Shown here one piece after another: positions 22,299-33,792 of a stretch of 64,000 bases of DNA. The position numbers and the translations under genes are program-made. The notes below the pieces were generated by a model. The model was not told where the DNA came from and did no database searches. It saw nothing but the letters and a program-made list of their open reading frames with translations. Position 1 is the first letter of the stretch. Every line of letters starts with the position of its first letter. Location: assembly GCA_016213525.1 (NCBI GenBank), contig JACRAE010000005.1:145405-209404 (forward strand), written 5' to 3'. This stretch comes from Candidatus Aenigmatarchaeota archaeon (GTDB taxonomy: Archaea > Aenigmatarchaeota > Aenigmatarchaeia > CG10238-14 > SCSR01).

Positions 22299-24550
22299 TG
22301 AAGGCAATCTTGTTTTTGTCCTTCATAGTGGCGTTCGTGTTCTCAATCGGAGAGGCAAGTGCTCTGATAACGGTTTGCGCCTCGGGCTGCGATGCGACCT
22401 CGGTTGCAGTCGGGCTCAGCATTGCCGCCGCAAACGAGGAGGTTAGGATTATAGACTCGGGCTACTACAACGAGGGACCAACCGTCTCGAGCAACAAGTT
22501 CCTCACGTCGAACTCCTCCGTCAGACCCACGATATGGTCCAACTCTGCCACATGTTGCAACATAGCGACCGCGAGCGGTATGATTGTATCGGGGAGCAAC
22601 GTGGTGATTAGGAACATAAGGATAGTAAAGAACAACAGCAACCCATTCTCGTCTGGAATGTCTATAGGCAGCGGGACCAATATCACAATAGAGAACACCG
22701 TCATAGAGGACCCAAGCTGGTGGGGGGTCTATGTGGGGTCCCCTAATCGTCTCAATTTCATAAACAACACCGTCTTGAGCGGGCTTAGCTCCTACGGAGC
22801 CGAGTTCAATGGAGTCTCTGACGGCTGGATACAGAACAACAGCAACATATCCAACAACGTATTTTCAGGTAGCGGCCAGAACGGATACAAGAATAACTTG
22901 ATTATGGGAAGTAACAACACCGTGAGCGGGAATATTTTTAACTGTGATGTAGAATGTTTGCATGTAAATGGGACGTCTAGCAATAACAACAGCATAAACA
23001 ACAACACCTTCCTTATGAGCCCAACAGGATATTCCAACATAGCCCTTAATATTCACGGCGCCGGCGTAAACAACGTCGTGGCATACAACAACTTTAGCGT
23101 GGTCGGTTCCGGGTCGAGTTCGACCTACGGAAACGCCATAAAACTGTCCTGGACGAACCACACACAAGTCTACGGCAACACGATATATGTCGCCGCGCAC
23201 TACGTCTATAACATAAATTGGTTGAAGGGAATATACCTATATCGGACGTTCTACAGCAACCTATCGTCAAACAACATATATATCACAGGCGACGCCTTTA
23301 CAACCCCAACCTACCTTAACTCCAACGGTTGGGGAATATATGACCAAGAATCATCGAACAACATCTATTCCAACAACATCGTAGCCGTCAACGGCACTGG
23401 AGACGACTATGGTATATACCTATATTCATCCAACAACTCGGTTCACATAAATGACTCCATGTTCACCAACAGCAGCCGCAGCCACGCACTCATAATACGC
23501 TATTCGACTAACAACACGTTCTACGACTCTGTTATAAATTCGACCACGGATCCAGATGTGAACGTCGGATACGGGAACGGTACAACGTATTTGGTCAACG
23601 TCACCATGAACAAGTCAGACATAAATTTCTCGTCCCAATATGAGGGGGACAGGGTCTATGTACAGTACTACGTGAACGCAAGGGCTACCGACAACTCAGC
23701 CGCGCCGATGAGTGGAATCGTGATATACGGGAACGACTCCTCATCTGTCCAAGATTACGACAACCCAACGAGCAACTTCTCCGCCACCACGAACTCCACC
23801 GGCTACATGCCACAGCAGATCCTTACCCAGTTTATGGCGAACGGAACTTACAGACTCGGAAGCTACCTGCAGTTCAGCAACTATACCATAGTCGCACGGG
23901 GCGAGACATTCTCTGCATCATCCCAATTGAACCTAACCCAGAACTCGTTCGTCGGTCTGGCAATAGCCAGACTCGTGTCAATTTTCTCGAAGGGATCCGA
24001 TTCGTACGGGATTATGGCGGGGGACACCGGTGACGCGGTCTATGGATTCGTGAACTCTCAGAACGCGTCGTCTACTTTATCAAGCGGCTGGAGCCATGTG
24101 GTCATGACTTTCGATTCGGGCACAATCAGGCTGTACGTCAACGGTCAGCTAGCCGGAACTGGCAGCACCTCCGCCACGCCCGCGGCTAGCAGCAGGAGCA
24201 TCATAATCGGCAACGGCACGGACCTCGTAATCGACGAGGTGACGTTCCGCTCGGGCGTCCTATCGCAGGGCGCCATCGAGCAGCACTACCAGGTCGGACC
24301 GGGCCTCAAGGCGATAGTGTCCGCGGTCGGCGGGGGCAGCTTCGGCAGGAACTTCAACATATCTGCCTCGACGGGCGACGGCTCGTTCTCTAACAGGCAT
24401 GTAACGGCGGCGGACCTCCTCGCAGGCACGACGCAGTCCGTCAACCTGCCGAACGCGACGGGGGTCCCCACCGCCGTGGTCGTGACCAGCAACTCCTGCA
24501 ACCAGGTGCTGACCGCGACGAAGGCGCAGCTGAGCGGGGTCTACTGCTAG
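22298..24550 (+). CDS. secreted parallel beta-helix (PbH1/NosD-like) protein with C-terminal LamG-like module and Cys-terminated cap
   Basis: Start at ATG 22298 (Sec signal MKAILFLSFIVAFVFSIGEASA). Repeats of the type N.I....G.DYGIYLYSSNNS. C-terminus WSHVVMTFDSGTIRLYVNGQLAG...IDEVTFRSGVLSQGAIEQHY. Ends ..QLSGVYC. Confidence 0.85.
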   Translation: MKAILFLSFIVAFVFSIGEASALITVCASGCDATSVAVGLSIAAANEEVRIIDSGYYNEGPTVSSNKFLTSNSSVRPTIWSNSATCCNIATASGMIVSGSNVVIRNIRIVKNNSNPFSSGMSIGSGTNITIENTVIEDPSWWGVYVGSPNRLNFINNTVLSGLSSYGAEFNGVSDGWIQNNSNISNNVFSGSGQNGYKNNLIMGSNNTVSGNIFNCDVECLHVNGTSSNNNSINNNTFLMSPTGYSNIALNIHGAGVNNVVAYNNFSVVGSGSSSTYGNAIKLSWTNHTQVYGNTIYVAAHYVYNINWLKGIYLYRTFYSNLSSNNIYITGDAFTTPTYLNSNGWGIYDQESSNNIYSNNIVAVNGTGDDYGIYLYSSNNSVHINDSMFTNSSRSHALIIRYSTNNTFYDSVINSTTDPDVNVGYGNGTTYLVNVTMNKSDINFSSQYEGDRVYVQYYVNARATDNSAAPMSGIVIYGNDSSSVQDYDNPTSNFSATTNSTGYMPQQILTQFMANGTYRLGSYLQFSNYTIVARGETFSASSQLNLTQNSFVGLAIARLVSIFSKGSDSYGIMAGDTGDAVYGFVNSQNASSTLSSGWSHVVMTFDSGTIRLYVNGQLAGTGSTSATPAASSRSIIIGNGTDLVIDEVTFRSGVLSQGAIEQHYQVGPGLKAIVSAVGGGSFGRNFNISASTGDGSFSNRHVTAADLLAGTTQSVNLPNATGVPTAVVVTSNSCNQVLTATKAQLSGVYC
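24086..24550. repeat. inverted-repeat arm A (3' end of beta-helix gene 22298..24550)
   Basis: The reverse complement of 33328..33792 aligns without gaps. The terminal 281 nt (24270..24550) differ at only about 8 positions by eye. Identity is lower upstream. Confidence 0.85.
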
Positions 24551-24585
24551 TCAAATTTATTTCAAAAAACTTCAGACTGTCGGGA

Positions 24586-24753
24586 CTATACCCTCAGCCT
24601 GGACCTTCTCCAGCGCTTCATCTGGCCTATGCTAATCCTGCGGGAGCGGGCGCGCTTCAGGCCGAACTTCTTGATGTCCGCCCACCTCGGCGCGTTCCTC
24701 ACCTTTCCGATCTTTACGAGCTTGACCTTCTTCGATATGTGGTTTATCGCCAT
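24586..24753 (-). CDS. rpl39e: 50S ribosomal protein L39e
   Basis: Not in the ORF track (55 aa). Translation MAINHISKKVKLVKIGKVRNAPRWADIKKFGLKRARSRRISIGQMKRWRRSRLRV fits the L39e pattern K.K.L.K....N...P.W....K........R.WRR..L. Confidence 0.7.
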   Translation of the reverse strand: MAINHISKKVKLVKIGKVRNAPRWADIKKFGLKRARSRRISIGQMKRWRRSRLRV

Positions 24754-24759
24754 GTCAAA

Positions 24760-32761: not shown

Positions 32762-32797
32762 AATCCATCTGGTGCGCCGGAAGTTTAAGTAAGGAAA

Positions 32798-33286
32798 TCA
32801 GCGGAGCGCGCGCTTCCTGTTCGCCGGGGAGGACATCCAGCTGAGCTTCGGGTCCTTCTTTATGTTGCCGTGCTGCGTGTCCGCGAGCGCGACCTCGTAC
32901 CACTGGTGCTTGCCGTCCTCGCCCACCAGGTAGGAGCCCACGACGAACATGTTGATGTGCCTCCTCTGCGCCTTCTCCTCGGCTATCTTCTGCAGGGACT
33001 TCCCGTGCGTAAAATGAACAAGACCCATCTTGGTCGGCTTCCTTCCCCTCCTTCCGTAGAGCTCGCGCCTGCGCCCGCCCTTGCCTATCTTGACGCGGGC
33101 CATTATGTAACCGGCCTTCGCCTTGTACCCTATTGTCCTCGCGCGGTCCACCCTGGTCGGCTTCTCTATCCTGACGACGGTGTTCTCGCGCCTCCAGCCG
33201 ATGAGCCTGGCCTTCATCATGTCGCCCATGTTCTCCTTGGGCTTCTTCCAGAGCTTGGCCACTTGGTGGTACAGTCCCTTTGACAT
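32798..33286 (-). CDS. rpl15e: 50S ribosomal protein L15e
   Basis: Start at MSKGLYHQVAKLWKKP (ATG 33286). IGWRRENTVVRIEKPTRVDRAR..GYKAKAGY...GGRRR. Confidence 0.92.
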   Translation of the reverse strand: MSKGLYHQVAKLWKKPKENMGDMMKARLIGWRRENTVVRIEKPTRVDRARTIGYKAKAGYIMARVKIGKGGRRRELYGRRGRKPTKMGLVHFTHGKSLQKIAEEKAQRRHINMFVVGSYLVGEDGKHQWYEVALADTQHGNIKKDPKLSWMSSPANRKRALR

Positions 33287-33327
33287 GGAACTGAATTCGT
33301 AAGTCAGGTTTATATACATTGTTCGGC

Positions 33328-33792
33328 TCAGCAGTAGACCCCGCTCAGCTGCGCCTTCGTCGCGGTCAGCACCTGGTTGCAGGAGTTGCTGGTCACGACC
33401 ACGGCGGTGGGGACCCCCGTCGCGTTCGGAAGGTTGACGGACTGCGTCGTGCCTGCTAGGAGGTCCGCCGCGGTTATGTGCCTGTTAGAGAACGAGCCGT
33501 CGCTCGTCGAGGCAGATATGTTGAAGTTCCTGCCGAAGCTGCCCCCGCCGACCGCGGACACTATCGCCTTGAGGCCCGGTCCGACCTGGTAGTGCTGCTC
33601 GATGGCGCTCTGGGACAGGACGCCGGAGCGGAACGCCACCTCGTCGATTACGAGGTCCGTGCCGTTGCCGAGCATCAGGCTCCTGTTGCCGGCCGCGGGC
33701 GTGACGGAGGTGCTGGCGGTGCCTGCGAGCTGGCCGTTGACGTATAATTTTATCGTGCCAGAATCGAAGGTCATGGCGACGTGGCTCCAGCC
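33328..33792. repeat. inverted-repeat arm B (3' end of gene 33328..36474)
   Basis: Partner of 24086..24550. Even the spurious antisense ORFs (24286..24501 and 33377..33592) translate almost identically. Confidence 0.85.

Follow-up and report, generated by a model that had tools for sequence, protein, structure and literature searches.

We examined a 64,000-nt stretch of DNA (the window) from a Candidatus Aenigmatarchaeota archaeon, a DPANN-type archaeon with a 0.66-Mb genome (GenBank assembly GCA_016213525.1, contig JACRAE010000005.1, positions 145,405 to 209,404). Here, two convergent genes for secreted surface proteins, which we call surfA and surfB, bracket a superoperon of exosome and ribosomal protein genes, and their 3' ends form a long inverted repeat. 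This repeat is very probably a gene-conversion tract. The two genes have saturated synonymous divergence over most of their length and are nearly identical at synonymous sites at their 3' ends. Moreover, the same pattern occurs in related genes from other metagenomes, where the gene bodies group by ortholog and the C-terminal tails group by genome. Concerted evolution of the 3' segment by gene conversion in at least three lineages is thus strongly supported, as judged from sequence comparison.

Inverted repeat and synonymous divergence

A repeat search reported a single inverted pair between positions 22000 and 36000. Its arms (24086-24548 and 33330-33792) are 463 nt long, 92% complementary, and spaced 8781 nt apart. 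They are the 3' ends of two convergent open reading frames (ORFs), 22064/22298-24550 (+) and 33328-36474 (-), and are present in only two copies in the genome (662 kb, 7 contigs). By exact count, the arms differ at 36 of 463 nt. The last 341 nt contain 11 differences (96.8% identity) and the last 281 nt contain 7 (97.5%). Two stretches, of 104 nt (24270-24373) and 100 nt (24449-24548), are the longest without a mismatch. Identity ceases at the stop codons (TAG versus TGA), and the 100 nt upstream of the arms are 45% identical when compared without gaps.

An earlier note on this DNA, made from the letters and ORF translations, had described 24086..24550 and 33328..33792 as reverse complements, with about 8 differences (about 97% identity) in the terminal 281 nt and far greater divergence in the rest of both genes. 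All of this is borne out by the counts above and by the synonymous divergence given below. The shared C-terminal peptide that it quoted agrees with the ORF translations, and its list of bracketed genes agrees with Pfam matches and the ORF listing. A 33-nt direct repeat (D1, at 22499 and 30011, 73%) was dismissed, as its similarity is at chance level.

Synonymous (dS) and nonsynonymous (dN) divergence between the aligned surfA and surfB genes was calculated by the Nei-Gojobori method in 31-codon windows counted back from the stop codon. The dS values are 0, 0.18, 0, and 0.21 for the four windows nearest the stop, then 1.5, 1.9, 1.5, 1.6, and so on. Thus, dS is 0-0.2 over the last 124 codons versus a saturated value of about 1.5 across the gene bodies, including the core of the LamG domain (Pfam Laminin_G_3). 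The window at 24083-24175, in this conserved core, encodes protein that is 87% identical, yet its dS is 1.5. Protein-level constraint therefore cannot account for the DNA identity downstream, and the near-identity of synonymous sites there requires a recent copying event. The upstream edge of the youngest tract lies at 24206-24242, and the lower identity over 24086-24206 is explained by an older tract that has partly decayed.

We propose that surfA and surfB belong to a lineage-restricted family of secreted beta-helix/LamG proteins, as paralogs that diverged long ago and would have inserted at the two edges of a conserved exosome/ribosomal superoperon. Homologous recombination between the inverted copies, presumably dependent on RadA, would repeatedly copy one 3' end onto the other. 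The latest conversion would cover about 340 nt up to the stop codon, and the older, more decayed tract would extend back to about 24086. On this account, conversion is episodic, with purifying selection keeping the tails matched afterwards, possibly because the tail serves as a shared docking or anchoring module. The inverted-repeat geometry would then be a consequence of where the two genes sit. The machinery for homologous recombination is present, as the genome encodes RadA (Rad51/RadA family match of 303 bits in a 337-aa ORF at G000:C2:22899-23600).

Authenticity of the two copies

The sequence derives from a groundwater metagenome, and a single sequencing run (X1) contains 96% of the sampled words. 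Logan k=31 contigs of this run served as an independent check on the assembly, and they reproduce both arms with zero mismatches. In run X1, the arm A-specific block (24344-24478) has a depth of 24.3, the arm B-specific block (33400-33534) has a depth of 30.5, and the shared terminal 100 nt have a depth of 67.3. This twofold depth on the shared sequence, with onefold depth on the arm-specific blocks, indicates two real copies that are truly identical in this region. The explanation that the earlier note had put forward as its own refutation, a consensus collapsed from two more divergent copies, is ruled out by these depths (67 versus 24-30). In the k=31 graph there is a break at each arm, and one 8841-nt contig (24519-33359), with the same 31-mers at its two ends, makes up the inner segment. 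The k=31 contigs cannot give the orientation of this segment, because the terminal 100 nt are identical and both isomers share their 31-mers.

An assembly artefact, either such a collapse or a mis-joining of the contig through the repeat, is thus extremely unlikely. It would be favored by the nature of the genome, a short-read metagenome-assembled genome (MAG), by the breaks in the k=31 graph, and by the dependence of the orientation on read information available to the original assembler. Weighing against it, the independent contigs contain both arm-specific blocks without mismatches and at the expected depths, the assembled orientation matches the ancestral synteny of nine relatives, and related contigs from other samples share the family-wide pattern.

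Bodies and tails in related lineages

The last 88 residues encoded by the repeat form a distinct tail, and genes that carry it are rare. The tail was not found in 40 related genomes, two of the same genus included, nor among all GTDB species representatives, where there were LamG-level matches only. A profile search of 1.84 billion representative proteins revealed only about a dozen carriers. Among JGI metagenome contigs, the tail occurs in a handful, the other matches being at LamG level, and no further genome with the tail was found there. A word-based search recovered eight full-length relatives on metagenome contigs, and in two further lineages a single sample (JGI 3300036766 and Ga0207952, respectively) contributes at least two tail-bearing genes.

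In sample 3300036766, one contig (L052) encodes a pilin-like protein and then the tail-bearing protein P0011, converging on L39e. Another (L051) encodes the tail-bearing P0010, followed 8 nt later by the L15e ORF and then by Rpp30 and Pop5. A second lineage thus has the inverted architecture seen in the window. In sample Ga0207952, contig L049 (identical to L056) encodes a pilin, P0007, a second pilin, P0005, and ProDH, converging on L39e, and contig L050 encodes an aminoacyl-tRNA synthetase (aaRS), FEN1, P0006, and L15e. In all three lineages, the superoperon is flanked by genes whose tails match.

The body of surfA is most similar to that of P0011 (57% identity in the helix and 75% in the middle region), with only 50% identity between their tails. 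The bodies of surfA and surfB are 25-40% identical. Tail identity within genomes is 98% for surfA and surfB, 94% for P0010 and P0011, and 93-98% for P0005, P0006, and P0007. Maximum-likelihood trees conflict accordingly. The body tree places surfA with P0011 (support 100/100), and the tail tree groups surfA with surfB (90/92), P0010 with P0011 (100/100), and P0005, P0006, and P0007 together (84/87). Between the orthologs surfA and P0011, dN is 0.36-0.79 in the tail versus 0.1-0.2 in the body. Within the pairs of the other lineages, tail dN is 0.00-0.10 and dS is 0.2-0.9, as expected for conversion followed by purifying selection. Overall, strong purifying selection acts on the tail within a genome, and the tail differs widely between lineages.

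The bracketed superoperon and its ancestral synteny

The bracketed genes are, in order, a 55-aa ORF of the size of L39e, Rrp42, Rrp41, Rrp4, SBDS, Nudix (+), DUF475/TerC, PsmA, TpiA, Pop5, Rpp30, two or three unknown ORFs, and L15e. We located the L15e neighborhoods of ten related genomes and mapped the proteins of the window onto them. In nine of the ten, L15e is divergently adjacent to FEN1, mostly followed by an aaRS gene. The block from L39e to L15e lies on one strand in the eight relatives with long enough contigs (the short contig of G002 ends after Pop5), and in four relatives a pilin-like gene, the ortholog of the gene at 21344, converges on L39e. No surface genes were found at these junctions in the nine relatives, for two of which, same-genus contigs, only the FEN1-L15e junction is covered. 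About 40-50 nt separate the FEN1 and L15e matches in the genomes of the same genus. In the window, the order is pilins, surfA, L39e to L15e, surfB, FEN1, and aaRS. The order shared by the relatives thus indicates that surfA and surfB are lineage-specific insertions at both edges of the superoperon. It also indicates that the bracketed segment is in the ancestral orientation, which counts against both a mis-oriented assembly and a fixed inversion in this genome.

The superoperon probably has its own promoter, predicted within the approximately 40 nt after the surfB stop codon. The sequence beyond this stop reads GCCGAACAATGTATATAAACC...ATGTCAAAGGG, and the TATATAAA box is located 26 nt upstream of an ATG at 33286. 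The box is also present in L050, L051, and L054. The Pfam L15e model (from residue 15 of the long ORF) and the alignments of the relatives begin at this ATG (MSKGLY...), which is probably the real start codon. The long L15e ORF (start at 33319) probably begins too early, as the box falls inside its first codons. From this arrangement, the L15e mRNA is probably leaderless or nearly so. A promoter for L15e inside the surfB tail was considered as a cause of the DNA conservation and rejected, because this TATA box lies after the stop codon and outside the repeat. A terminator scan between surfA and L39e found none, and an exact-protein look-up with the L15e of this genome gave no match.

Relative to the order in the same genus and family (L15e-Rpp30-Pop5-PsmA-SBDS-Rrp4-Rrp41-Rrp42-L39e), the additions to the superoperon are Nudix, DUF475/TerC, TpiA, and two or three small unknown ORFs (at 27767-30777 and 31596-32761). 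These insertions are shared with close metagenome relatives. Many long ORFs are antisense to real genes, including one of 294 aa opposite Rrp42/Rrp41 (24739-25623, +) and one opposite the pilin genes (20908-21438). In at least one relative (L054, 706-1116), the frame picked by gene callers is the antisense one.

Weighing gene conversion against other explanations

The earlier note had offered two explanations for the repeat, homogenization of the tail by recent or ongoing gene conversion and inversion of the core segment, and had suggested comparing synteny with relatives and divergence between the tail and the rest of the genes. Both comparisons were made. The first gave the ancestral orientation described above, and the second gave dS of 0-0.2 in the tail versus 1.5 in the adjacent LamG window. 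Conversion is strongly supported by the step in dS from about 1.5 to about 0.05, the conflict between body and tail trees, recurrence in three lineages, and the presence of RadA. The inversion proposal fared less well. Its geometry is right, as a flip would swap the tails and leave both genes intact, but no flip is evident in this genome, where the assembled segment has the orientation of the nine relatives.

Some points weigh against gene conversion as we describe it. The conversion event itself is not directly observed, and the assignment of contigs to one genome in the other lineages depends on shared sample and synteny. Upstream of P0011 lies a third beta-helix/LamG paralog in tandem (L052, 3-1754), whose tail is of the type found in the window, and P0010 and P0011 share a very different type, so homogenization is not genome-wide. 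Both tails have a GC content at third codon positions (GC3) of 0.91, compared with 0.62-0.66 for the gene bodies and 0.82 for the neighboring core genes. High tail GC3 fits GC-biased conversion but is also compatible with a foreign origin of the tail. Finally, the function proposed for the tail is argued only from its position, its conservation, and a weak resemblance in fold. Tail GC3 is also raised in most relatives.

The tails might resemble each other without any conversion, through recent duplication, very strong purifying selection, or independent lateral acquisition of the same tail cassette. In favor of this view, purifying selection on the tail is strong within pairs (dN/dS about 0.03-0.1), tails fall into distinct types, two of which occur together in one genome, and tail GC3 is raised. 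However, synonymous sites in the tail are nearly identical as well (dS about 0.05), next to an equally conserved LamG core at 1.5, and the duplication cannot be recent because the bodies are saturated at synonymous sites. The within-genome match recurs in three lineages with different tails and would require repeated paired acquisitions, and copying of a cassette between the two paralogs would itself amount to gene conversion. We thus consider an origin without conversion very unlikely.

A different possibility is a working, homology-driven inversion switch, in which crossovers within the 100-104-nt perfect runs flip the 8.8-kb segment, either in the present population or formerly in related lineages. 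Flips would swap the tails and change which surface gene reads into the L15e operon, and they are compatible with gene conversion. The perfect runs (104 and 100 nt) and RadA would permit them, and all genes and the operon promoter would survive, as the L15e TATA box is outside the repeat. One JGI contig (L054, 3300045922, 1-6677) carries exactly the junction predicted for an inversion. It encodes an L31e-like protein, two pilins (73% and 90%), the tail-bearing P0009, L15e, Rpp30, Pop5, PsmA, and DUF475. An orthologous left flank is thereby joined via P0009 to the L15e end, so that the superoperon is inverted relative to the nine reference genomes. Such a junction is expected from a crossover between inverted tails and equally from an assembler jump between paralogs. 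Identity to L054 is 100% in a Logan contig of a different run (L060), which extends without a break from within LamG through the tail and L15e into Rpp30, and the tail is thus probably not an exact repeat in that sample. L060 ends inside LamG at position 3130 of L054, so the link from the P0009 body to its LamG and tail is carried solely by the JGI contig, a single short-read metagenome contig in which a chimeric join upstream is possible. We judge a real inversion in the L054 lineage to be about as probable as an artefact. Otherwise, the orientation here is ancestral, as are all other informative junctions (L049/L056, L050, L052, and L053). The reciprocal junction (FEN1-surface gene-L39e) was not found, and run X1 contains no strand-changing joints, although its k=31 contigs could not show such joints. 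On contig L068 as well, a tail-bearing gene converges on L39e, although only this inner side of the junction is known. Among Pfam-matched ORFs between 19436 and 39114 there is no recombinase family; all are housekeeping, pilin-like, or surface-protein genes. Because the promoter moves with the operon, the genes stay intact, and the tails are almost identical, an inversion would be nearly neutral and yield almost no protein variation. The capacity for inversion therefore fits a by-product better than a selected switch, and we regard the switch as unlikely. Combining the two ideas, the tail could be more than a passive conversion tract and act as a docking module specific to each lineage, with the cell envelope, a pilus, or the host membrane as its partner. 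It would exist in discrete types, with the superoperon-flanking pair always of the same type, even where a tandem third copy has another (L052), and the inverted pair would drive occasional flips of the superoperon, as suggested by the L054 junction. The types would be type I here, type II in P0010/P0011, and further types in P0009, P0012, and P0016. This combined scenario strikes us as quite improbable.

In L068 (600-4600), the calls for the surface gene, Rrp42, and SBDS are broken into two genes each, which points to frameshifts caused by sequencing errors or decay.

The tail domain

The final 88 residues are conserved in 13 of 13 known members of the family. Invariant features are G-x-G-S-x-G-R, L-x-x-G, N-x-T-G, and two cysteines, one of which is the final residue. 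There was no sequence match to the tail in Pfam, NCBIfam, or PDB. An AlphaFold model of the tail, based on the 13-sequence alignment, is a six-strand beta-sandwich (predicted local distance difference test score, pLDDT, of 73; predicted template modeling score, pTM, of 0.63). A model of LamG plus tail was discarded as too weak (pLDDT 62). The best Foldseek matches to the tail model are lipoxygenase and pancreatic-lipase entries (E 0.1-0.9, template modeling score 0.5-0.58), and there were none at E<=0.001. These matches presumably fall on the PLAT/LH2 beta-sandwich domains of those structures.

We tentatively suggest that these surface proteins vary in their beta-helix and LamG parts and may share the tail as a module for docking or anchoring, with the envelope, a pilus, or a membrane as the possible partner. 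This suggestion draws on the C-terminal position of the tail, the lack of a membrane anchor, the neighboring pilin-like genes, and an analogy to the bab and hom genes of Helicobacter pylori (see below).

The surface-protein genes and their neighbors

The features discussed here are listed in Table 1. Both surface proteins have similar Sec-type signal peptides at their N termini and match Laminin_G_3 (46.2 bits for surfA and 45.2 bits for surfB; Pfam gathering cut-off 27.6). In surfB, NosD (33.3 bits, cut-off 23.6) and Gly_rich_2 (77.6 bits) were also identified by Pfam. The Beta_helix match of surfA is 17.4 bits, under the Pfam cut-off of 25.9. The surfA ATG at 22298 overlaps the stop codon of the third pilin-like gene, and the database call begins at a GTG at 22295. 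Its ortholog P0011 begins MKAALFLSF. For surfB, the public protein is 753 aa long and starts at METNVC. The ORF reaches 1048 aa and includes the signal peptide and Gly_rich_2, so the database gene model is probably truncated at the N terminus. Within the Gly-rich part of surfB (35828-36270), back-joints with short inserted letters occur in the Logan contigs of run X1, probably reflecting assembly slippage in low-complexity GGxGG repeats or strain variation in repeat number.

All three pilin-like ORFs upstream of surfA match the archaellin/type IV pilin N-terminal domain TIGR02537 (20-29 bits, cut-off 20), and they also weakly match UpsA. Pilin genes adjoining L39e are kept in several relatives. 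In a more distant lineage (contig L069), three pilin genes are followed by a tail-bearing gene.

Table 1. Coordinates of features in and around the inverted repeat (positions within the window)
Feature	Position	Strand	Basis or remark
Three archaeal type IV pilin-like genes (20923, 21344, 21885)	20923..22298	+	upstream of surfA; ancestral left flank of the superoperon
surfA: secreted, Sec-type signal peptide, right-handed beta-helix, Laminin_G_3, orphan C-terminal tail	22298..24550	+	
Arm A of the inverted repeat (C-terminal half of LamG plus tail)	24086..24548	+	repeat search, exact count
Most recent putative conversion tract, arm A	24207..24548	+	96.8% nt identity, dS about 0.05-0.2
Orphan 88-aa tail domain (HYQVGPG...SNSC-x15-C at the C-terminal end)	24284..24547	+	predicted six-strand beta-sandwich
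Exosome/ribosomal superoperon, L39e to L15e	24586..33319	- (Nudix on +)	Pfam, ORF listing; ancestral orientation relative to flanks
TATATAAA box of the superoperon	33309..33316	-	12 nt after the surfB stop, outside the repeat
surfB: signal peptide, Gly_rich_2, NosD/beta-helix, Laminin_G_3, same tail as surfA	33328..36474	-	
Arm B of the inverted repeat	33330..33792	-	repeat search, exact count
FEN1 (XPG_N/XPG_I)	36540..37565	+	ancestral right flank, divergent from L15e in nine relatives

Comparison with known systems

Earlier work on the co-evolution of tufA and tufB by gene conversion was reportedly done by Hughes. As described in passages of two papers (PMC5485169 and PMC6735719), tufA and tufB of Salmonella and Escherichia coli are inverted duplicates around core translation and transcription operons that undergo RecA-dependent gene conversion and can invert the intervening DNA. 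A passage of the latter reports that the Salmonella inversion costs fitness by breaking operon contiguity (PMC6735719). The system described here is similar in that inverted paralogs bracket essential, highly expressed information-processing operons, evolve in concert by conversion, and provide a substrate for inversion in the same repeat. Unlike tufA and tufB, only the last ~340-460 nt are homogenized and the rest of the genes is saturated, the proteins are accessory surface proteins rather than essential factors, and the segment is 8.8 kb. In addition, the organism is a DPANN-type archaeon in which RadA would replace RecA, and inversion is not demonstrated here.

Surface paralogs with a similar division occur in H. 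pylori. In the part of PMC3960876 that cites Pride and Blaser (2002), the 5' and middle regions of babA/babB and homA/homB group by gene across strains and the 3' segment groups by strain. As in our case, a variable exposed or binding part is combined with a homogenized C-terminal module. However, the H. pylori 3' segment, as characterized in that part of the source, is an outer-membrane beta-barrel anchor, whereas the tail described here is a small, soluble-looking beta-sandwich. Our genes are also archaeal and form a convergent pair around a core operon, in contrast to the dispersed H. pylori loci.

Site-specific invertons and shufflons, which involve Hin/Gin-type invertases and include the hsdS invertons (PMC7672463), likewise have inverted repeats within coding sequence, and recombination here would similarly swap C-terminal parts. 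In contrast to those systems, there is no recombinase gene in or beside the segment, and the repeats are hundreds of nucleotides long with graded identity rather than short, defined sites. The nearly identical tails would also give almost no protein variation upon inversion.

Significance

The process itself is well known, and the present case adds a DPANN-type archaeon and an orphan domain to the kind of system represented by tuf and bab/hom. For genome scanning, it is mainly a warning. Where the 3' ends of paralogs form a long inverted repeat around core genes, the repeat will usually be a conversion tract and not a switch, and in a MAG the orientation across it should be verified by comparing gene order with relatives. 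Only one lead, the L054 junction, could raise the significance of the case. If the tail is indeed a docking module of discrete types and the superoperon occasionally flips, this would be the natural equivalent, in an archaeon with a minimal DPANN genome, of the tufA/tufB inversion system. The orphan C-terminal domain, identical within the genome and fast-changing between lineages, is a target for studies of how adhesin-like proteins are attached or make contact with a host. More broadly, segmental concerted evolution in multiple lineages related to an archaeon with so small a genome suggests that homologous recombination actively shapes the surface-protein genes of such reduced symbionts.

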